A DNA stretch of 64,000 nucleotides from Candidatus Peribacteria bacterium (GCA_023245935.1 JAHFJM010000004.1:13924-77923); one strand, 5' to 3'; shown: positions 15,608-38,883, counted from the first letter of the stretch. Numbers and translations are program-made. The notes: a model not told the origin generated them from the letters alone.

Positions 15608-15709
15608 AAAGTCACTGAAAATAGCGATGAGTTCCGATGTTCATATTCCATTTTCTTTTTGAAGACTCTTGTCTATCATTGTTCAGCTTATTTTCTCCCC
15701 TCGCAGAGT

Positions 15710-16480
15710 ATGGCAACAAAAGAACAACAGCAGAACGTATGGTTCGGTCTCTCGATGTTCCTCGGCGGCATGATCGTCGGCGTCATCCTCGTTGGTGCAA
15801 GCGGCATCAGCCCTTTCGGAAAAGGTCAGCCTGCTCCGAGCGGTCAGCCTTCGCCGACGGCACCGAATGCTCCGGAAGCTCCGACGGCAAATCTTCAGGA
15901 CACCATTCTCGGATTTGCACGCACAGTCGGTCTCGATGAGGCAAAGTTCACCGGTTGTCTCGCGGCAGACAAGTTCAAGCAGATGTTCACAGATGAGGAG
16001 GCGGCAGGTCAGACGGCCGGAGTGAACGGCACACCCGGAAATATTCTGATCGACATGAAGACCGGCAATGCCAGACTGCTCTCCGGCGCGCAGCCGTTCG
16101 AGGTCTTCCAGAAGAACATCGACGAAATGCTCAAGAATCCGACGGCGAAGAGCACGGATCCAGCAACCCCTCAGGCGACGAATGTCGTTCCGGTCGATCT
16201 CGAGAAAGATCACGTCCGAGGCTCCAAAACGGCACGTCTGGCACTGATCGAATACTCCGACTACCAGTGTCCGTTCTGTCACCGTGTTCACCCGACATTG
16301 GAGCAAATGATGCAGAAGTATGACGGAAAAGTTGTTTGGGTCTACAGACACTTCCCTCTCAGTTTCCATCCGAATGCAATTCCTCTCGCAACAGCTGCCG
16401 AGTGCGCGAATGAAATTGGCGGAACGGATGCGTTCTGGAGTTTCACTGATGAGGTCATGGCGAGTGATAATGTAAATTGA
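15710..16480 (+). CDS. DsbA-family thioredoxin-fold thiol:disulfide oxidoreductase, membrane-anchored
   Basis: An N-terminal TM and a Pro/Ala linker precede the CPFC active site (YSDYQCPFCHRVHP) and a DsbA-like C-terminal part. ATG is at 15710. Confidence 0.8.
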   Translation: MATKEQQQNVWFGLSMFLGGMIVGVILVGASGISPFGKGQPAPSGQPSPTAPNAPEAPTANLQDTILGFARTVGLDEAKFTGCLAADKFKQMFTDEEAAGQTAGVNGTPGNILIDMKTGNARLLSGAQPFEVFQKNIDEMLKNPTAKSTDPATPQATNVVPVDLEKDHVRGSKTARLALIEYSDYQCPFCHRVHPTLEQMMQKYDGKVVWVYRHFPLSFHPNAIPLATAAECANEIGGTDAFWSFTDEVMASDNVN

Positions 16481-24932: not shown

Positions 24933-27900
24933 TTACGAACGTCTCAGGAATCTCCTCCTCGCAAGCCCAATGCCGGCTGCTGCGCCGGTGACGATGAAGA
25001 TCACCATACCCGGACCTTCCTGTGACCGCGCTGGAGTCGGAACTTTCGTCACTTGATCGAAAGCATCTGCAGAGCTTCGGACCCCTTGCGGAGGAATCAG
25101 CGTTCCGACAACCGGAGACGCGGGATGCACCGCTCTCCTGCAGGCGTGATCGCACCCGTCACCGTCGAACGTGTCTCCGGTGTCACACTCCTCATTCACC
25201 GCGACGACTCCGTCGCCGCAGTACGGCAGCTGGCAATTGTCGAGACACCGCGTCGATGCATAGTTCCCGTTGTTGATCCCCGTGTCGCACTGCTCGTACG
25301 GTGAATCGATGACGCCATTGCCGCATTGCGGAACCCTCACCACTCGGCAGAGTACCGTGCAATGCGAAGAAGGCTGACCGTTGAGAGGTCCATCGTCACA
25401 CTGCTCACCGGATCCGCTGTTGATTTGTCCGTCACCGCAGGTACCGTTTTCGACCTTGCATTGCGCGCTGCAACCGTCTCCATCGATGGCATTCGAATCA
25501 TCACACTCTTCTCCCGCATCGATTGCTCCGTTGCCGCAAGTGGTGACCGTCAGGATCTGACAGGTAGTCGTGCAGTTCTGATTGATTTGTCCGTTGAGAG
25601 AGCCAAGATCACATTTCTCCCCCGCTTGCTGTATTCCATCACCGCAGTAGGCAATACTCGAAGCAGGGTACTGATTCTCGCTGGAAGATTGCTGGAAATT
25701 TTGCGAAGGATTTGAGGGGAAACTCGCGATAAATTGACTCGAGCTCGAGGTATCTTTCAAGCTTTGGCAGCACACCTCCGACTGCGAACAATTGCCGAGG
25801 GTCTGAGAGTACGGACACTCCTGGAAGGGAACGCAGGAAGAACCCGTGGGGCAGGTCAGATCACTTGAACTGCTTGAACTCGAGGAGGAATCGAGAGAAC
25901 TTGAGGAGCTCGGCACGGCACCCTGGCAACACACTCCGGTATCCGAACAGGCACCGACTGTGCTCTCCGGCGTGCATTCGTAATAGTTGACGCAAGCGGA
26001 ACCGCCCGGGCAGACGGAATCCGGAACACTCGATGATGAGGACTGCGATCCGCACACCGCGGGACAGGACACTCTCGAATCCCAACATGACCAGCTGCCA
26101 TCCGGACAACAAATCGCTTTATCTTCGCATGCAGGCTTGTTTCCAATGCTGCAGGCTGGAGAGAGAGAACTGGAACTTGAGCTCGAATTTTCACTGCTCG
26201 AAGAAGAACTTGAGGACGAACTGCTGAACGAGGAAGAAGAGGAGCTGCTCACACTGTTGACACTTGAACTGGATGAAGAACTCGAGGAGGGAACAATGGG
26301 AGGGAAGGTGGACGTGCTGTTGCAGGTGTACACCATTGCTCTCGACAGGGAAACGAATCGTACGCAGCCCTGTCCGCAGCTCACCGGCGTGGTTGCCCAG
26401 TGAATGTACTCGGGGAAAGAAACAGACGTATCCTGGCAGAGCGGTTCAGAGGGCGAAGCAGTCATTGCGATCGCATCAATATATTCCTGCCTGTCTTTGT
26501 CCGTGAGATCGGCCGGATCGAAGGAGTAATAGTCGGGATAGTAGGTGCTGTTATAACCGCCCAGTGACGTACTGCTGCGCGTGCATGTGCCCGAAATCGC
26601 AAAGGGACTGATCGAATACTGAACGCCCTGCCATGTGCAGATGTGATCCGGTCCATCCATCGAAACAGGCTGCCATCCGATTTTTGGGAGAGCCTGTGCA
26701 GTGCAGACAAACGGATTCACGTGTCTGCACGCAATGTCGGGGCTCTTGCATGTAGTCGCAAATCCTCTTCCTCCAAGAGACACGAATCTGGCACAGTTTG
26801 GTCCGCAGCTCACAGGCGCAGTCGCCCAGCTGACATCGTGATTGAATGAGACAACGGAACCCGAGCAGGCCGGGGGGGAGCTTTGAACAACATTGAGAAT
26901 CAGATTTTTCATTTGAGTTCTGTCCGGATCCGTCGCATCATTTTTGGCGAAGCTCATGAAATCGGGAACCGTGGGAGGCGTACATGTGCCTGCTTCTTGA
27001 AAGGGATTGAGTGTGAAACGTTTTCCAGTCGCAGTACAAGCGGCATTCGGTCCGTCCATCGAGACAAAATCAACATTGTGCGTGCTTTCGCGGATGCACC
27101 CGATCGGATCGATGGCGGTGCAGGACGACGTGATGTCGCCTCTCAGGATCGATGATCCTCCCGAAATGGCATCTGTGAAACTCCTGATCAAACCGGTCAC
27201 CCAATGCCACACGCCGCTGCCACCGGTTGAAACGGACGAGTTGGAAGTTCCCGGTATCAAGGACCCGAGAAGATTTCCTCCAAGCGTCGAGCTGCTTGCA
27301 CTGTCAACGGCAATTCCATTCACGGCAGGATCCCAGCACATCCAACTGCCGTCGCCGCAGCAGTATGCGTACGCATCGCCGGTGCAGACCGGGGCAACGC
27401 CCTGACATCCTGCGCCGTCGATGAATGAAGATGACGAAGAGGAACTTGAAACACTCGATGTGTTTTGGCAGCAGACTCCGGTCTCCGAACAGACATCAAT
27501 GGTTTGTTCCGGCGTGCATTCGAAGAAGTCGACGCAGGAAGAGTCTTCGGGGCAAGCAGATTGCTCACTGGAAGAAATGCTGCTCTCGCTTGAAGCGCTT
27601 GAACCGTTGTTGCAACAAACGCTGTCGAATGAGCAGGCATCACCGGTATTGTCGGGAGTGCAATCAAAGAAATACTTGCAGGAAGATCCGGACGGACAAC
27701 TGCTGCTCGTGACGCTTGAAGACAAGCTGCTTGTATTGGAACTGACCGACGAACGGGAAGAAACTGCGGAACTTGCGAGTGAAGAACTCGCACTGAATCC
27801 TGAGCTTGCAGAACCGGAACGACTGCTGCTCACACTCGAGCCGGCAGAGAAACTGGAAGAAACCGAAGAACTTGAAACGCTTGATGTGTTTTGGCAGCAG

Positions 27901-30900
27901 ACTTCGAGCGACGAACACTCGCCCACCGTGTGATCCTGATCACAATCGAAGAAGTAGACGCAGGAAGAATCAGCGGGACACCCCGCACTGCTTGAACTAT
28001 TCGAACTCATGCTGCTCTGTGATCGTGAGGATACGACAGAAGATTTCGAGGAACCAACGGAGCTTTGCACGGAGCTCGTAGAAAGGCTGGATCCCGCAGA
28101 ACCGGAACGAGAACTGGAAACGCTCGATGATGTGTTTTGGCAGCAGACTTCCAGTTGAGAACATGCGCCAAGGGTCTGTTCGGGATTACAATCGAAGAAA
28201 TATTTGCAGGAAGAATCGGACGGGCATGCTTCGCTGCTCGAACTCATGCTGTTCTGTGATTGTGAAGAGACAACCGAAGATACCGAACCGGCGGAGCGAC
28301 TGGATCCGGCAGAACCGGAACGGGAGCTGCTTGAATTGGATCTGATCGAAGAAATGGAAGAAACAGAGGAATTCGATGATCCTCCACCGGAGCAAGTACC
28401 GGGACACTGAAGTGTCAGATCCTGACAGGACCAAGTGCCGTCCGGACAGCAGAAGAGCGTGTTTTGGCACTGCGGCTTCGTTGCATCGGAACAGAAGCCT
28501 GCATCAGAACTTGAGGATAGGGAGGAAGAATTTCCGGAAGAAGAATTGTTGGAGGAAGAAGAACTCTTCAAAGACGAACGCGAACTGCTGCGAGAACGGG
28601 GAGAGCTTGAGGAAGAGCAGTACGTAAACCCGGCGACTGCAGCACGGAAGTCACGAGACAGAGCATCCTTGTCTGCAGCGTACCGTGCGTCCAAAGCAGA
28701 GAGCCCGGCTTGGATCTCCGTAGGCACACGTGTTTTGGGATCGATCCCCCTGGCCTGCCAGTAACCGACATCGACTTTGTACAGAACATACACGCTGTTG
28801 ATCGTACTGTTATAGGCAGTGTCCAATGCTGTGCGAATGGTTCCATAGTCCTTCGTCATCGCGACGATTGAGACGCACGCATTCGGAAACGTATAATGCT
28901 CGACCGGACAATTCGCGGGGAATGCGCCAATTGCGGTAAGAAAGTCGCGAGAGAGAGCGGCTGTATCCTGAGCATACTTTCCATCCACAGCAACAAGCAC
29001 CGTCTGAACATCCGCAGGCAAACGTGTTTTGGGATCGATCCCCCTGGCCTGCCAGTAGCCGACATCGATTTTGTACAGAACATACACGCTGTTGATCGTA
29101 CTGTTATACGTATCAGTCAGTGTTTTTTTCGCAGCGGCAAAGTCAGTGATCGAATCGATAACGGGTACACACTCGGTCGGAGGAGGGGGAGGCGGAGGGC
29201 AACTGCTCGATGGGAAGGCGGCAACCGCGGCACGGAAGTCACGATTGAGAGCCGCTGTATCTGCAGTGTACCTTGTGCTGAGAGCCGCAAGAGCAGTCTT
29301 GATCTCTGCGGGCAGAAAGAATTCCGGATTGTTGCGATTCTGAACGCCGTAGGTGGCATAGATGGAATTTGCATTCGTGCTGTACGCATTTGAGAGCGTT
29401 TTCGTTTCTGCGTTGTATTCCTCAGTCATCGCAACAACGGACACGCATGAATTCGTAAACGTATAGCTCTCCACGGGACAATTCGTCGGGAATGCGCCGA
29501 TAGCTGCAAGAAAGTTGCGAGAGAGAGCAGCTGTATCTGCGGCGTACTTCTTATCCATCGCATCGAGCGAAGCCTTGACCTCTGCGCTCAGAAAGAATCT
29601 TGGATTGTCGCGGTTTTGAACACCGTAAATGGCGTACACATTGTAGATTGCGGTGTTGTAGGTACTGGCAAGCGTTTTGCTTGCTGCAGCGTAGCTGGCG
29701 ACTGAGCTTGCGATAGGAACGCACTCGGTTGGCGGAGGGGGAACAGGACAGTCTCCGGGAAGCGTGGCGAGTGCAGCGTTCAAATCATGAGAGAGCGCAT
29801 CCTTATCCGCAGCGTACTTGCTGTCCACGGCGGCGAGTGCTGCATCGACCTCTGCACCGATGAAGATTCTTGGAACATGGTCTGCGTACGTCGCAGGATT
29901 ATAAGGATGGTAGATGGCATACAATTGCAGAATCGAATTGCGGTATGCAGTGTCCATCGCTTTGCGCTTTTCAGCGTAGACACGCATCATGTCGACCGCC
30001 GACACTCCGCATGTATCTGGGAACACAGTGCTTTGTGTGGGACAATTCAGAGGAAACGCAGCGAGGGCTGCAAACAAGTCATTGGAGAGAGCAGCCGTAT
30101 CTGCGGCGTACTTCCCGTCCAACACCGCGAGGATGGCATCGACCTCTGCACTGATGAAGATTCTTGGAACATGGTCTGCGTACGTCGCAGGATTATAAGG
30201 ATGGTAGATGGCATACAATTGCAGAATCGAATTGCGGTATGCAGTGTCCATCGCTTTGCGTTTCGCACCGTACTCACTCATCGAATCGACAACTTGCACG
30301 CAAGTATTCTGCGGAGAAGCGACTCCTCCCGTGAGATCTCCTTTCAAGGTGTCACCCGCTCCATTGAAGATGCTTCCAAAGAAATGCAGAACGCTTTTGC
30401 CAAGATCGATGATCCACTGCATCAGGCCTGAACCGGACTGATTCGATGCGAGCGCTGTTTTGTGACCTCCGAAGAGCAAGTTCCCTCCTAGGATTGATCC
30501 CCCACCGGGAGCCTCGTCGACGATGAGACCGTTCACCGAAGGATCGAAACACATCCAATTTCCGTTGCCGCAGCAATATGCATACGAATTGCCGGAACAC
30601 ACGGGCTCTGCGTCGCCGCACCCGGTAATGCTGGAGCTGAGGCTGCTGGCCGAAGAACAAGACTCCGGACCGCAGGAGATCACGCAACCATTCGCACCGA
30701 AAACCATCGAGGAAAAAGTACATCCGGGTCCCGGGTCGCAGACGAGACATGAGGAAGATTTCGAAGAACTGGACACCTTCGAATTGTTGCTATTCGCTGA
30801 CGAAGATGAACTGGACGGAGGATCGGTACAATCCCGATTCAATGAATTCCGCGCCGTGATGTAGTTTCGATGCAAGGCATCCAGATTGGCTAGGTAGGTA

Positions 30901-34286: not shown

Positions 34287-35615
34287 CTATGGCCTGCAGC
34301 AAACTGTCGGTCCAAAATTGCCGGGTGCGCATGCACCTGCAGTCTGCTTCGAGCTCGGACACATCGCGGTGACTCTGCATGCATTCGGGGAACTGCATGG
34401 CGGAACACAACACACCTTGCCGCCGGTACATGAGTCATTGGTCCTCCTCGCTATGGGACACGATGCACTTGTTGCGCATGCATTCGGAGAAGCGCACGCC
34501 GTCACCGGGTCACAACACACCTTATTGGTACCGGAACATGCCCCTGTTGTGCGGCTCAAGGCCGGACAGAGCATAGTCGTTAGACATGTATTCGGAGACT
34601 GACATGTCGGAGCGCGACAGCAGACCAACTGCGGACTGCTGGTGGGACAGGCAACTCCCGGCATCCGTCTTGATACTGGACAGGAGGCAGGATTTTTACA
34701 TGAATCGGGGAGACCGCATGATGTACAGCAAATCGTGCCTGTGGGACATGCGCCACCCGTCTGGTGTGACAACGGACATTGGCTCGTCGGTGAACATAAA
34801 TTACCGGAGGCACATGCTGCTGAAGCAGAAGAGGAAGGATTGGATGATTGCTGAGAAGAAGGCGATGAACTGCGTCTGGAAGATCTTGAGGAAGAACGTC
34901 TGGAGGACCGAATGGAGGAATTGGCACTGGAACCTCCTCCACCCCCCCCTCCACTACTACTGGAACTTATGGAAGACTGTCCGGAGGAATTGGCACTGGA
35001 ACCTCCCGAACCTCCACTGCCTGAAGAACCGCTGGAGCCACCGGAACCCGCACTGCCGGAGGAACCAGTGGAACCGCTGGAGCCACCGGAGCCGCCTGAG
35101 CTGGAAAAGGCAGGACATAATGGATCGGGGAGAGTAACCATAACGCATAAATTGAAAAAAAGGTCACACGTGCAGTGCCCCATTCCTCCTGCAGGTTGGC
35201 AACCATTGTTACAGATCTGCATATTGCTCACTTGTCCAATGCATGATGCATCTGGATTTGGAGCGGTATTGCAGCCAGAACTTGAAGATGTGCTCATGCT
35301 TGAGGAATTTGAGCTGGCAGATGCACCGCCACACACTCCCGGATGTGCAGTCTGTGCTGCTGCACACGTTAATTCCCCTGGGAAGAAATTTCCCAGTGCG
35401 GTCGTACAAGCAGTCGGGGTCATTACACCGATACAGTGAGGTGTTGGCACCGTGGAACAACAGGCAGCGGTCGGGGGAGTGAGTGCCATTCCCTTCACAT
35501 CACTATTCACTCTAAACCAGAGCTGCATCGCAAGAACAATCACCAACAGAACTGCAGGAACAACGATGGCTGTGAAACCAATGATATTGGAGGAGAACTT
35601 CTTGGGATGCTTCAT
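34287..35615 (-). CDS. N-anchored Cys-rich surface protein (442 aa) with Gly/Ser tract and five 6-Cys knot modules
   Basis: The N-terminus is MKHPKKFSSNIIGFTAIVVPAVLLVIVLAM. The GS/S tract spans aa 171-266. Five C-x5-C-x5-CP-x8/9-C-x5-8-CC modules span aa 268-440 (nt 34296-34814). Confidence 0.75.
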   Translation of the reverse strand: MKHPKKFSSNIIGFTAIVVPAVLLVIVLAMQLWFRVNSDVKGMALTPPTAACCSTVPTPHCIGVMTPTACTTALGNFFPGELTCAAAQTAHPGVCGGASASSNSSSMSTSSSSGCNTAPNPDASCIGQVSNMQICNNGCQPAGGMGHCTCDLFFNLCVMVTLPDPLCPAFSSSGGSGGSSGSTGSSGSAGSGGSSGSSGSGGSGGSSANSSGQSSISSSSSGGGGGGGSSANSSIRSSRRSSSRSSRRSSSPSSQQSSNPSSSASAACASGNLCSPTSQCPLSHQTGGACPTGTICCTSCGLPDSCKNPASCPVSRRMPGVACPTSSPQLVCCRAPTCQSPNTCLTTMLCPALSRTTGACSGTNKVCCDPVTACASPNACATSASCPIARRTNDSCTGGKVCCVPPCSSPNACRVTAMCPSSKQTAGACAPGNFGPTVCCRP

Positions 35616-35638: not shown

Positions 35639-37267
35639 CTATTCTGCTCTGCACAACTTGCTGCAACCGTCACCGGATTTCGTGTTCTTATCGTCACACT
35701 GCTCACCGGTATCGATCGTCCCATTGCCGCAGACTGCCGCATGAAGACCGCGGAGCGTGGTGAGGAGGAGAATCAAGTCCTTCCGATCCACGGCACCGTC
35801 ATTATTCAGGTCATTTCTGAGATTTTTGATTTTCATGTCCTGGAACATCATCGTGATTCCCCTGTACATCTCGCTGTTGCTTAGCACACCGCTTCGATCG
35901 ACGTCGAGAGCGGTCAGAATACGAGCGACTAAGGGAGCGATTGGAGCTACGACGAGCGGAGGAGGCAACGCTACTGCAGTGCAAAGGGGAAGAAGTGGTG
36001 ACGGAGCCTTGCACAACCAAGGGAACGGCGGCGGTCCCGGTGGTGGGTGGAGAGGGCAATTACCGAAATGATGCGGACAGTAGTAGTACGCCTCAAGTAC
36101 GCCATGATCCCCGGCAATAATGCCCGCGTCCGGTCCATCGCATTTAATGTACTTTGCCGGTGTCTCGTTGACGCCAATGCACGTGCCCGGTCCTCCGCAT
36201 GTGTTTTCACAAAGTGTCTTAAAGCTGTTCATGTAGGGACCAAGAATAGCGCAGTCGATGGTGATCGGTGGCGTGTTACCCGGTGGAAGTGGAGTCGTAG
36301 GTGGGGGAACTTGTGGCGGATAGCCGGGATAGCCGAGTGCGACCGTGCACCTCTTTTGCATACAATTTGCACTGCAGCCGTCTTGGACAACGGCACACGC
36401 TCCTGTACCGGGGCAGTCTGCAGCGACGCTGCACTGCTTCCCTAAATCCGGAGGACCATTCGGACAATGCTTTCCATTGTCACAGACTTCCGGTGCAGTG
36501 ACGATTCCGTCTCCACAAGCGACGGTGCAGACACTGGTGGAAGTAGCGAGTGGAAGATTTTCACAAGACCAACCGTTCTGAATATTGCAGGCTGCAGTAC
36601 ACCCGTCTCCATTCGTGTTGTTGCCGTCGTCACAGGCTTCATCGTCTCCGCCACCCGGAGCATTGTCTTGGCCATTGGCATCTCTGTATCCGTCTCCGCA
36701 TGATTCGGTTTTGCAAATGTTACTGCAGCCATCTCCGGAAACGGTATTCCCGTCGTCACACTCCTCCGGAGCCACTGTGGCATTGTCTCCACAGGAGCCA
36801 ATCGGTACGCATGTAGTGCCAACGCAGACAGTAACTCCCGGGTTACACATCGGTGGAGTGCAAGCAGACACGCACGTTCCTGATAAGCACGTTCCACAAC
36901 AAGGAGGCTTTTCGGTGGAAGGCATTGGTCCGACGCAGCAAGCGGTCGTCGCTCCCGGAGAAAGGCAGCTGGTGCTACCGTCAGGTCTGCACGTTGAGGC
37001 ATTTCCACACGTGGGAATCGTGACGTCGGGACACGGTCCAAGGAAAGTGCATATTGCAGGAGAACCAAGACACACCGCCGGCGCAATGCAATTCGATGTG
37101 TTGCAAGCGAACACGCATCCTGTAGATGGACAAACAATGCCTCTCAGAGACGTTGTATTTGAGAAGAGCGATGACTTGATGATAAGAACAACCACCAAAA
37201 GAACGGTCGGAACTACGAGAGCTGTGACACGGATAGCAGTGGATGAGTGCTTCGAGAAATGCTTCAT
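35639..37267 (-). CDS. N-anchored Cys-rich surface protein (542 aa) with myxo-type Cys repeats and a dockerin-like EF-hand pair
   Basis: The N-terminus MKHFSKHSSTAIRVTALVVPTVLLVVVLII is paralogous to the neighbour. The repeats CGDNATVAPEECDDGNTVSGDGCSNIC, ACDDGNNTNGDGCTAAC and CGNGTIDTGEQCDDKNTKSGDGCSKLC are present. The loops DVDRSGVLSNSE and DLNNDGAVDRKD lie at aa 455-497. Confidence 0.75.
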   Translation of the reverse strand: MKHFSKHSSTAIRVTALVVPTVLLVVVLIIKSSLFSNTTSLRGIVCPSTGCVFACNTSNCIAPAVCLGSPAICTFLGPCPDVTIPTCGNASTCRPDGSTSCLSPGATTACCVGPMPSTEKPPCCGTCLSGTCVSACTPPMCNPGVTVCVGTTCVPIGSCGDNATVAPEECDDGNTVSGDGCSNICKTESCGDGYRDANGQDNAPGGGDDEACDDGNNTNGDGCTAACNIQNGWSCENLPLATSTSVCTVACGDGIVTAPEVCDNGKHCPNGPPDLGKQCSVAADCPGTGACAVVQDGCSANCMQKRCTVALGYPGYPPQVPPPTTPLPPGNTPPITIDCAILGPYMNSFKTLCENTCGGPGTCIGVNETPAKYIKCDGPDAGIIAGDHGVLEAYYYCPHHFGNCPLHPPPGPPPFPWLCKAPSPLLPLCTAVALPPPLVVAPIAPLVARILTALDVDRSGVLSNSEMYRGITMMFQDMKIKNLRNDLNNDGAVDRKDLILLLTTLRGLHAAVCGNGTIDTGEQCDDKNTKSGDGCSKLCRAE

Positions 37268-37362
37268 ACAATTATCTTCATCCTAAAGGTTGCGCACTTC
37301 CTGAAGCAATACGATCTTCTCAGAATTTGGTTTTTGGAATTTTTCGTCTTACACTGCCGTCC

Positions 37363-38883
37363 ATGATCAGAAAAAGCACATCAGACGAGAAAAAAAAACC
37401 GTCCCACGTGTGGCTGTATGCGTTGTTCGTCCTCGTGACGTCGTTCTTCACGTACATGTACCGCTACGACTTCCCGCCGAATCCTTTCTGGGATGAGCCG
37501 TACCACATCGTCTCCGCTCAGAAGTACCTGAACGGAGTCTTCTTCATGGAGCAGCATCCTCCGCTTGGGAAACTGTTCATCGCTCTGGGAGAAAAGATCG
37601 TGCACGGAAATGCACGGAACGATCAGTTCCTGACGACCGACTACGCAAACAATATTCCGAACGGTTTCAACTTCGCGGGATACCGACTCTTCCCGACACT
37701 GTTCGCGTGGCTCACTGCACCAGTGCTCTTCTTCATCTTTCTCTTCATCACGGGAAGCAGTCCCCTCTCCGCACTCCTTTCTTTCCTCTACGTCTTCGAC
37801 AATGCAGAGATCGTCCACAGCCGCGGCGCGATGGTGGACAGCACACTGACGTTCTTCGGAATGCTCTGCGTGCTGCTCTTCCTCCATCTCCAGCGAAGAG
37901 AAAGGAAGGTCACGCTGAAGAAGCATTGCATTCTCTCGCTTCTCCTCGGCGTATCGTTCGGGCTTGCAATGGCGACGAAAGTCATCGCACTCATCTTCAT
38001 CCTGCTCTTCCCGCTGATCATCCTGCGCCTGCTCCCCGATTGGAGAAAAGTCACGCTCTTCTGTGTTCTCAGCATGGTAGGAATGATGACAATGTACGTC
38101 AGTGTCTGGCAGATTCACTTCTCACTCGGGAAGAGAGTCGTGCCCGAACTCCCCGATAACGGGTATTACCAGGCATCGAGCGAGCTGAAGACGATTCTCA
38201 GTTCGCATGCGCAGAACACATTGTCGTCATTCCCCGTGATGCTTCGCGATCACCTGCTGTTCGCACCGCACTACAACAGAGGAGTGCCGCGTCTCGACCT
38301 GTGCAAGAAAGATGAGAACGGAAGCCCCTCGTACTTCTGGCCGTTCGGGGCACGGTCGATCAACTATCGCTGGCAACAGGAGAATGAGAATGCGTATCGC
38401 TATCTCTACCTCGTGAGCAATCCCGTCGCATGGGGGCTTGGGCTGCTTGGCATTTTATTGACTGCCGTTCTTCTGATCGGCTCACAACTTTTCACAGTCA
38501 AAGAAAAACTGCAGCAGCCGTTTCTGCTTCTGTCGTTTTTTGGCATCTACTGCTCATACATGATTGCAATCAGCCGCATCACGCGTGTGATGTACCTCTA
38601 CCACTATTTCCTGCCTCTCCTGTTCAGCTTCATTCTGTTTTCGCTCGTCCTCATCAATATCCGAACCATCGGACGGTACAGAGTCACCGATGATCGGCGC
38701 ATCGTCTTCATGACGATTCTCGGTCTTCTGATCTTCGGTGCATTCCAATTCATGAGGCCGCTCACCTATTACGAGCCGCTGACCGACAGTGCATTCAAGA
38801 AACGAGCAATCGTGACCATGTGGGAATTGACCTGTGTCCGTTGCCAGAAACTCAGTTGGCTTGTGGTGCCGACCGGGAATTAG
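37363..38883 (+). CDS. Dolichyl/polyprenyl-phosphate-mannose protein O-mannosyltransferase (GT39, PMT family)
   Basis: The loop-1 DE motif (FWDEPYHIVSAQKYL), the HPPLGK motif and about 10 TM helices are present. The start is set at the ATG at 37363 (MIRKSTSDEKKKPSHVWLY...). The gene is divergent from the 542-aa gene across a 95-nt spacer. Confidence 0.8.
   Translation: MIRKSTSDEKKKPSHVWLYALFVLVTSFFTYMYRYDFPPNPFWDEPYHIVSAQKYLNGVFFMEQHPPLGKLFIALGEKIVHGNARNDQFLTTDYANNIPNGFNFAGYRLFPTLFAWLTAPVLFFIFLFITGSSPLSALLSFLYVFDNAEIVHSRGAMVDSTLTFFGMLCVLLFLHLQRRERKVTLKKHCILSLLLGVSFGLAMATKVIALIFILLFPLIILRLLPDWRKVTLFCVLSMVGMMTMYVSVWQIHFSLGKRVVPELPDNGYYQASSELKTILSSHAQNTLSSFPVMLRDHLLFAPHYNRGVPRLDLCKKDENGSPSYFWPFGARSINYRWQQENENAYRYLYLVSNPVAWGLGLLGILLTAVLLIGSQLFTVKEKLQQPFLLLSFFGIYCSYMIAISRITRVMYLYHYFLPLLFSFILFSLVLINIRTIGRYRVTDDRRIVFMTILGLLIFGAFQFMRPLTYYEPLTDSAFKKRAIVTMWELTCVRCQKLSWLVVPTGN

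Follow-up and report, generated by a model that had tools for sequence, protein, structure and literature searches.

A lineage-specific six-cysteine module with a predicted beta-defensin-like fold in putative surface proteins of Candidatus Peribacteria

Beta-defensins are recognized by the consensus framework C-x(4-8)-C-x(3-5)-C-x(9-13)-C-x(4-7)-CC. According to reviews, their scaffold occurs only in vertebrates and some invertebrates (PMC11561630). The repeats of rusticalin (Cx6Cx6-7Cx8Cx7CC) are assigned to a beta-defensin-like fold, and the tick carboxypeptidase inhibitor (TCI) has been called the sole structure with two beta-defensin-like repeats (PMC6339383). Peribacteria are reported to encode large extracellular cysteine-rich proteins, which may serve attachment and differ from strain to strain (PMC4736985). 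The subject of this text is a module of 29-34 residues with six cysteines, present in 11 copies in two neighbouring genes of a Candidatus Peribacteria bacterium (GCA_023245935.1; class Peribacteria, phylum Peregrinibacteriota, within the candidate phyla radiation, CPR). The source genome is 1.22 Mb long, 99% complete and has 53% GC; the window, which is the whole stretch of 64,000 nucleotides (nt) analysed, is contig C8, 13924-77923, and coordinates below are window positions unless another source is named. The account cautiously preferred here, as somewhat probable, is that the module is a lineage-specific, beta-defensin-like three-disulfide bead that serves surface attachment proteins as a rigid or binding element and is not a free antimicrobial peptide.

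Six copies are located in a giant protein of 3,091 amino acids (aa) with 176 Cys and 524 Ser (P0001, 24933..34208, minus strand), and the other five in the 442-aa neighbour (P0002, 34287..35615, minus strand). The giant-type copies, all on the minus strand, are G1 (aa 1995-2023, 28140..28226, CPSDSSCKYFFDCNPEQTLGACSQLEVCC; net charge -3, 57.0 bits), G2 (aa 2077-2105, 27894..27980; -6, 49.7 bits), G3 (aa 2171-2199, 27612..27698; -3, 46.9 bits), G4 (aa 2219-2247, 27468..27554; -7, 51.0 bits), G5 (aa 2733-2761, 25926..26012; -3, 44.1 bits) and G6 (aa 2786-2814, 25767..25853; -2, 48.3 bits). The span 27468-28226, flagged in an earlier sequence-only reading by a model, covers G1-G4; G5 and G6 are found at nt 25767-26012. 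That reading had given the giant protein six copies with invariant spacing, and the spacing C-P-x4-C-x5-C-x8-C-x5-CC is indeed exact in 6/6 copies, as are the loop-2 strings quoted for them. The neighbour-type modules N1-N5 fill P0002 aa 268-440 (34296..34814, minus strand; 39.6-45.1 bits each), the individual copies being aa 268-297, 300-333, 338-368, 374-403 and 407-440. Their spacing is C-x5-C-x5-CP-x8-C-x5..9-CC, with last loops of 5, 8, 6, 5 and 9 residues. They had been credited with the same cysteine spacing as the giant protein, which is incorrect: loop 3 has nine residues instead of eight, and the last loop ranges from 5 to 9 instead of being fixed at 5. Likewise, the motif “SPN,” proposed as a P0002 pattern, occurs in only three of the five copies. 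The picture of beads on a string in the giant protein and of head-to-tail packing in P0002 agrees with the linkers, which are Ser-rich and 19-65 aa long in the former and 2-5 aa long in the latter.

The two sub-types are chemical opposites. Giant modules carry a net charge of -2 to -7, two to four aromatics and a conserved loop 2 (V-x-F-F-[DE]), while neighbour modules have a net charge of 0 to +2, are almost devoid of aromatics and display Arg/Lys in loop 3. A degenerate candidate for a 12th copy, C-x7-C-x5-C-x8-C-x8-CC, is located in a third gene, P0003 (aa 79-111, 36935..37033, minus strand), but is not significant: it reaches 31 bits only if included in the model and is undetected with the hidden Markov model (HMM) of the 11 copies.

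The pattern is a genuine domain under purifying selection. When only the 11 copies are used to build an HMM, a search of the 1.22-Mb genome yields exactly 11 significant domains (39.6-57 bits), which lie in the two genes, all on the minus strand, and confirm the number first reported. A loose regular expression run on the six-frame translation of the genome matches only the locus, one 380-aa Cys-rich open reading frame (ORF) 5 kb past the window and one 61-aa junk frame. At the DNA level, the framework pattern yields 11, 8, and 5 matches in three genomes of the genus, against mostly 0-3 in 118 other genomes of the family, a background comparable to that of a reversed-pattern control; the higher counts listed (G433, G239, G447) come from TGC/GCT-type simple-repeat DNA. 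Over 15 giant-type copies from four genomes the six cysteines, Pro5 and Val30 are invariant while their codons are mixed synonymous ones, which means that these residues are held by selection. In the same copies the proportion of synonymous differences (pS) is 0.78 and saturated, and that of non-synonymous differences (pN) is 0.32, giving a pN/pS of 0.41.

So far the module has been found only in a single genus of Candidatus Peribacteria. With the same spacing, the giant type recurs in giant Ser-rich ORFs of three congeners (G002, G003, and G004), and its model is found in 1/229 genera (401 genomes of the class). Across 319 genera of the phylum (401 genomes), the neighbour-type model gives convincing matches in this genus only. 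The rest of its phylum-level matches with E ≤ 0.01 consist of short junk frames, several of which contain stop codons, and weak matches in G009 and G021 were rejected as ordinary low-Cys ORFs. When 185,579 species genomes were scanned with a narrow peptide pattern, a single locus, in G002, was confirmed. The 11-plus-1-copy HMM found no real match in 1.84 billion representative proteins, the two that appeared being spurious eukaryotic repeats without a CC doublet; since this library did not return the genus's own giant proteins, of which the window's giant ORF scores E 2e-64 in a local hmmsearch with the module profile, the negative is weaker and not exhaustive for the lineage. Word-seeded homologue searches found nothing with P0002 aa 260-442, nor with giant aa 1990-2830, where Ser-rich words swamped the query.

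Within the genus, module copy number varies between strains. The P0002 orthologue of G002 (L009:12524-14176, minus strand) contains two neighbour-type modules, and nine metagenome contigs from one sample set (L029-L037, SXGQ-SXGU, found via a 6-row alignment subset) carry G002-like alleles with two to at least six modules at a period of 87-89 aa. This fits the strain variation described for the Cys-rich proteins of Peribacteria (PMC4736985). Some module-plus-linker units are identical, and their copy number differs between contigs (L029-L037, L009); the G002 assembly shows N-gaps and an apparent frame break within the repeat region. The G002 orthologue carries, after its modules, a dockerin-like EF-hand tail (DSDSDGT...DINGDGNVNRDD), which in the present genome is found on a separate 542-aa protein. 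The different position of the tail suggests that modules are shuffled between accessory genes.

Judged by profile alignment, the giant-type and neighbour-type modules are related. The alignment of 17 giant-type with six neighbour-type modules (hhalign) spans 32 columns with all cysteines in register, at a probability of 73% and E 3e-5, and its score is reached by 1/300 shuffles of the non-Cys columns.

The module had been called unassigned, and at the sequence level this description stands: no Pfam, NCBIfam or PDB model matches it at threshold, and on the whole proteins Pfam and NCBIfam find only myxo-type repeats, at the giant C-terminus and in P0003. It was also said to be distinct from EGF, the myxo repeat and typical knottin patterns, and no HMM of the EGF, granulin or myxo-repeat families matches the modules. 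The myxo-type repeat (TIGR02232/DUF4215) falls outside them, at giant aa 2889-3023 and in parts of P0003; granulin gives zero matches in single-module Pfam scans, and EGF-like domains appear only as EGF_Hmr-1 (E 0.15) and EGF_Pikachurin (E 2.5), in one module each. The label “knot” is probably the wrong topology word. A knottin or inhibitor cystine knot needs its doublet at III-IV (C-C-CC-C-C), whereas here it is terminal, at V-VI, and knottin-type matches are weak and local (Toxin_30, E 0.019 over 12 residues; Toxin_12, E 4.2; isolated conotoxin matches). A PDB hmmsearch with two profiles returned only a 12-residue hydrophobin match, “CS..VCC” (E 4), rejected as local, and a viral structure library gave no meaningful match. 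Arthropod clip domains share with the modules six cysteines, the start C-x5-C-x5-C and an invariant V-C-C end. However, they span 37-55 aa, have long loops and are located N-terminal to a trypsin-like protease, and no clip structure is among the structural matches given below. The clip model CLIP_1 (PF18322) is the commonest weak Pfam match (5/17 modules), with a best score of 15 bits against a cut-off of 26 and covering C1-C3 only, and a whole-genome clip-domain scan reaches 11 bits (E 0.6). The clip assignment (PF18322/PF12032) was rejected on its sub-threshold HMM and on the lack of a protease domain in either protein.

In the sense of resembling nothing known, by contrast, “unassigned” does not hold. 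The terminal CC and the spacing had been held to differ from known patterns, yet C-x5-C-x5-C-x8/9-C-x5-CC is essentially the beta-defensin framework, giant-type loop 3 being one residue short. The modules are not small secreted cationic peptides, but are embedded in anchored 442-aa and 3,091-aa proteins. As a yardstick, an alignment of seven vertebrate beta-defensins was assembled (framework C-x6-C-x4-C-x9-C-x5/6-CC) and validated by a PDB search, which recovered 1bnb, 1fd3, 1e4s, 1kj6, 1ut3, and 2lg5 at E 1e-12 to 1e-18. Against it the neighbour type aligns over C3-C6 as “CP....G.C.....CC” (hhalign probability 48%, E 1.9e-4), a score attained by 1/300 loop shuffles in which the Cys columns were kept. 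The link to beta-defensins suggested by these profiles is moderate for the neighbour type and transitive only for the giant type. The modules are not established members of the beta-defensin family.

The predicted structures point in the same direction. The AlphaFold2 model of the giant type (predicted local distance difference test score, pLDDT, 89) has strands at residues 8-12, 21-24, and 29-33; strand 1 contains C2, strand 2 abuts C4 and strand 3 contains C5-C6, which is the beta-defensin layout. The neighbour type, modelled as a separate sub-type, has a pLDDT of 82.7. Compared with 350,542 PDB chains by Foldseek, the neighbour-type model finds the beta-defensin fold in 12/12 matches, including hBD-2 (1fd3), hBD-1, TCI (1zlh), SCRiP1, and APETx1, and the giant-type model in 3/6: AvBD3 (7lzl; template modelling score, TM, 0.56; root-mean-square deviation, rmsd, 2.1 Å), gallin (2mjk) and pelovaterin (2jr3). 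TM ranges from 0.45 to 0.63 across the beta-defensin-fold matches. The weight of this comparison would lie in the agreement across matches and in no single one. Placement in an established class had been named as the outcome that would overturn the earlier description; it fails by HMM, as no family is reached, while the predicted structures do retrieve beta-defensin-fold entries, with non-significant E-values. Taken together, the models suggest a three-stranded antiparallel sheet of beta-defensin (trans-defensin) architecture. The positions of strands and cysteines, which are the sole basis for a pairing, would connect C1-C5, C2-C4, and C3-C6.

Vertebrate beta-defensins (PF00711) resemble the modules in their six cysteines ending in CC, in nearly equal loop lengths and in the three-stranded sheet predicted here, and share with the neighbour type a “CP” after C3 and a “G-x-C” before C4. 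Their structures (hBD-1/hBD-2 1fd3, 7lzl, 2mjk) superpose on the models over 27-35 columns with TM 0.45-0.56 and rmsd 2.1-3.0 Å. Unlike these free peptides, the modules come in sets of five or six within large anchored proteins; the giant type is in addition acidic and aromatic, and the modules belong to a bacterium of the CPR and to a single genus. The best rmsd to the neighbour-type model is that of TCI (1zlh, 2jto; 1.2-1.5 Å, TMq 0.59-0.63). TCI and rusticalin, whose motif is close to the module spacing, also place tandem beta-defensin-like domains in one polypeptide, but these are animal proteins with two domains, compared with five or six here. In addition, the C-terminal tail of TCI enters the active site of the carboxypeptidase, and neither such a tail nor a protease partner was identified at this locus. 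In the literature searched, the beta-defensin fold is reported only from animals, and no paper was found that connects it with CPR or DPANN proteins.

P0003 (542 aa, 35639-37267, minus strand), located upstream of P0002, P0002 itself and the giant P0001 are three successive minus-strand genes, and all three products are Cys-rich with N-terminal hydrophobic anchors; the host proteins contain 6% Cys and 17% Ser. The giant protein has a hydrophobic anchor or signal at its N-terminus, four myxo-type Cys repeats near its C-terminus (aa 2889-3023; TIGR02232, 4e-17), and a transmembrane (TM) helix followed by an Arg-rich tail at the C-terminus. P0002 consists of the N-terminal anchor, a Cys-rich head, a Gly/Ser linker of ~100 aa and the five tandem modules at its C-terminus. 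The proteins described from Candidatus Peribacter riflensis are likewise large and exported, with 6-7% Cys, weak similarity to Myxococcus Cys repeats and variation between strains (PMC4736985). However, that paper gives no description of the module, which was not found in the other Peribacteria genera sampled.

Further cysteine motifs accompany the modules in the giant protein. Each module cluster is preceded by a duplicated C-x6-C-x5-CCPDG[ST]WSC[QW]D-x5-CP-x2-C, at 28300-28420 and 26030-26140 (aa ~1930-1968 and ~2690-2727). A second duplicated unit reads GC-x5-VC[ST]G-x-[AS]YAYCCG-x-G-x-WMC[FW]DP-x-VNG, and aa ~1180 and ~2265 are also listed for duplicated motifs. These duplications fit a duplicated supermodule. 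Approximately 3.4-5.7 kb past the end of the window (G000:C8:81312-83572, locus L024), two more anchored Cys-rich ORFs of 333 and 380 aa contain 7.8% and 11.1% Cys, respectively; one of them holds a loose C-x6-C-x5-C-x10-C-x6-CC unit, whose score with the module HMM is not significant.

The N-terminal anchors could be pilin-like in P0002 and in a P0003-like protein of G004 (L011:14005-16188). P0002 begins with K-K-F-S-S-N-I-I-G-F-T-A-I-V-V (35520-35615) and the G004 protein with R-V-I-G-F-T-L-I-V-L, and both are reminiscent of the class III (prepilin) signal G|FT[LA]I, although they carry Val at the position where Glu5 is usual. No Pfam match to N_methyl was obtained on either anchor.

Two kinds of enzyme encoded in the window bear on the proposed architecture. 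On the plus strand at 37243..38883 lies the divergently transcribed gene of a protein O-mannosyltransferase of family GT39 (PF02366, 3.7e-33; PF16192, 1.8e-15). Such an enzyme adjoins the locus in 4/4 genomes examined, namely this genome (G000) and its congeners G002, G003, and G004, and it probably modifies the Ser-rich linkers on either side of the modules. The alternation of Ser-rich tracts with modules and the position of the GT39 gene beside the locus support the picture of glycosylated linkers. The second is a DsbA-like thioredoxin-fold protein, a candidate disulfide oxidase, which is not adjacent to the locus (15659..16480, plus strand; PF13462, 3e-18; PF01323, 2.2e-17). Three DsbA/Thioredoxin_4-like ORFs are present in the genome, one of them inside the window.

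Through this arrangement, the giant protein would string six acidic, aromatic-rich beads between Ser-rich linkers that are probably O-mannosylated by the adjacent GT39 enzyme. Stiff glycosylated linkers and disulfide-locked beads would occupy the C-terminal third of a fibre anchored by the C-terminal TM helix, and the five mildly basic copies of P0002 would pack into a compact rod at the C-terminus, carried by a Gly/Ser stalk. The modules would most likely serve as rigid, protease-resistant spacers and ligand-contact beads of a cell-surface attachment apparatus. The candidate contact surfaces, exposed and fast-evolving, would be loop 2 in the giant type (V-x-F-F-[DE]) and loop 3 in the neighbour type (CP-x-x-[RK]-[RK/Q]-T-x-G). 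The fungal CBM1 is a disulfide-stapled three-stranded mini-sheet of ~35 aa with four cysteines, conserved aromatics and O-mannosylated Ser/Thr linkers. It offers a functional analogy only, as its cysteine pattern is different and it shows no sequence match to the modules.

Several observations weigh against a beta-defensin-like bead in attachment proteins. Neither the Defensin_beta nor the CLIP_1 Pfam model attains its threshold; for Defensin_beta (PF00711) the best score is 10.9 bits (E 0.2-0.5), seen in 2/~23 modules, compared with a gathering threshold of 21 bits, and a whole-genome scan with PF00711 matches no module. The giant type aligns with the beta-defensin yardstick at a probability of 1.3%, within the range of the shuffles. 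All Foldseek E-values lie between 4 and 10 and each is non-significant alone, as expected for a 35-residue query. AlphaFold may reproduce beta-defensins from cysteine spacing, and if it was led by that spacing the evidence from the fold is not independent of the pattern. Neither DsbB nor VKOR was found in the genome by Pfam, despite a proteome rich in extracellular cysteines. Finally, the function is read from architecture and neighbourhood alone.

The strongest competitor draws on the same facts. In this view the module would have a new three-disulfide fold, or would serve as a generic disulfide staple, and be structurally unrelated to beta-defensins; its likeness to them would be an artefact that arises from the cysteine spacing and from small PDB peptides memorized by AlphaFold. 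The failure of curated HMMs, the high Foldseek E-values, a giant-type profile no nearer to beta-defensins than shuffled loops, and AlphaFold2 input alignments that are shallow (6-12 rows from one genus) all speak for it. It is nevertheless considered unlikely, although to be taken seriously: the models of two sub-types only ~30% identical converge on one fold class, non-cysteine residues contribute to the match of the neighbour type with beta-defensins, as the loop shuffles indicate, and the strands take the positions relative to the cysteines that the beta-defensin layout demands.

A bolder proposal, rather doubtful at present, is that trans-defensin domains are not an animal invention but a recurrent surface module of ultra-small episymbiotic prokaryotes, in which the basic P0002 array and the acidic giant beads would form a charge-complementary system for docking or host-envelope binding. 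Charge also underlies the suggestion that the modules are active effectors. In that case the basic P0002 array would act as a tethered binder or perturber of the host envelope, or as a TCI-like protease inhibitor, with the acidic giant copies docking by charge. As episymbionts, CPR bacteria need to attach to other cells (PMC4736985, PMC11665869), a two-domain inhibitor gives the best structural match, and neighbour modules (0 to +2) have R/K in loop 3 as beta-defensins do, opposite giant modules at -2 to -7. However, +2 per module is far below the charge of antimicrobial defensins, and there is neither an amphipathic signature, nor evidence of peptide release, nor a protease partner in the locus, so that an effector role appears improbable.

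More doubtful again is true homology with animal beta-defensins, big defensins or clip domains, whether by ancient descent or by horizontal transfer. Its support comes from the same framework, the shared “CP” after C3 and “G-x-C” before C4, Foldseek alignments with 33-40% identity to hBD-1, hBD-2, and TCI, and the frequency of CLIP_1 among the weak Pfam matches (5/17 modules). Against this stands an extremely narrow distribution (1/229 genera of the class, one convincing genus of 319, none real in 1.84 billion proteins), which fits recent local invention. Tiny disulfide scaffolds converge easily, significance is not reached at the HMM level, and the chemistry is acidic and tethered. A chance product of Cys/Ser-rich low-complexity sequence, conceivable in host proteins of such composition, can practically be dismissed in view of the exact spacing in 6/6 giant copies, their conservation in other genomes despite saturated synonymous divergence, and DNA-level counts of 11/8/5 in the genus over a background of 0-3 in most of the 118 genomes.

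Should the fold not be as predicted, the module would be an ordinary lineage-specific Cys-rich repeat. If the fold and the pairing are true, this bacterium would carry, in multiple tethered and partly acidic copies, a scaffold that reviews place only in vertebrates and some invertebrates, and the bead would bear on the question of a single origin of trans-defensins in animals as against easy re-invention. The module and the conserved protein O-mannosyltransferase adjacent to it make a testable substrate-enzyme pair. Giant Cys-rich proteins are prime candidates for the attachment of the uncultured, probably symbiotic Peribacteria to their partners, and the module provides a small expressible unit of these otherwise intractable surface proteins.

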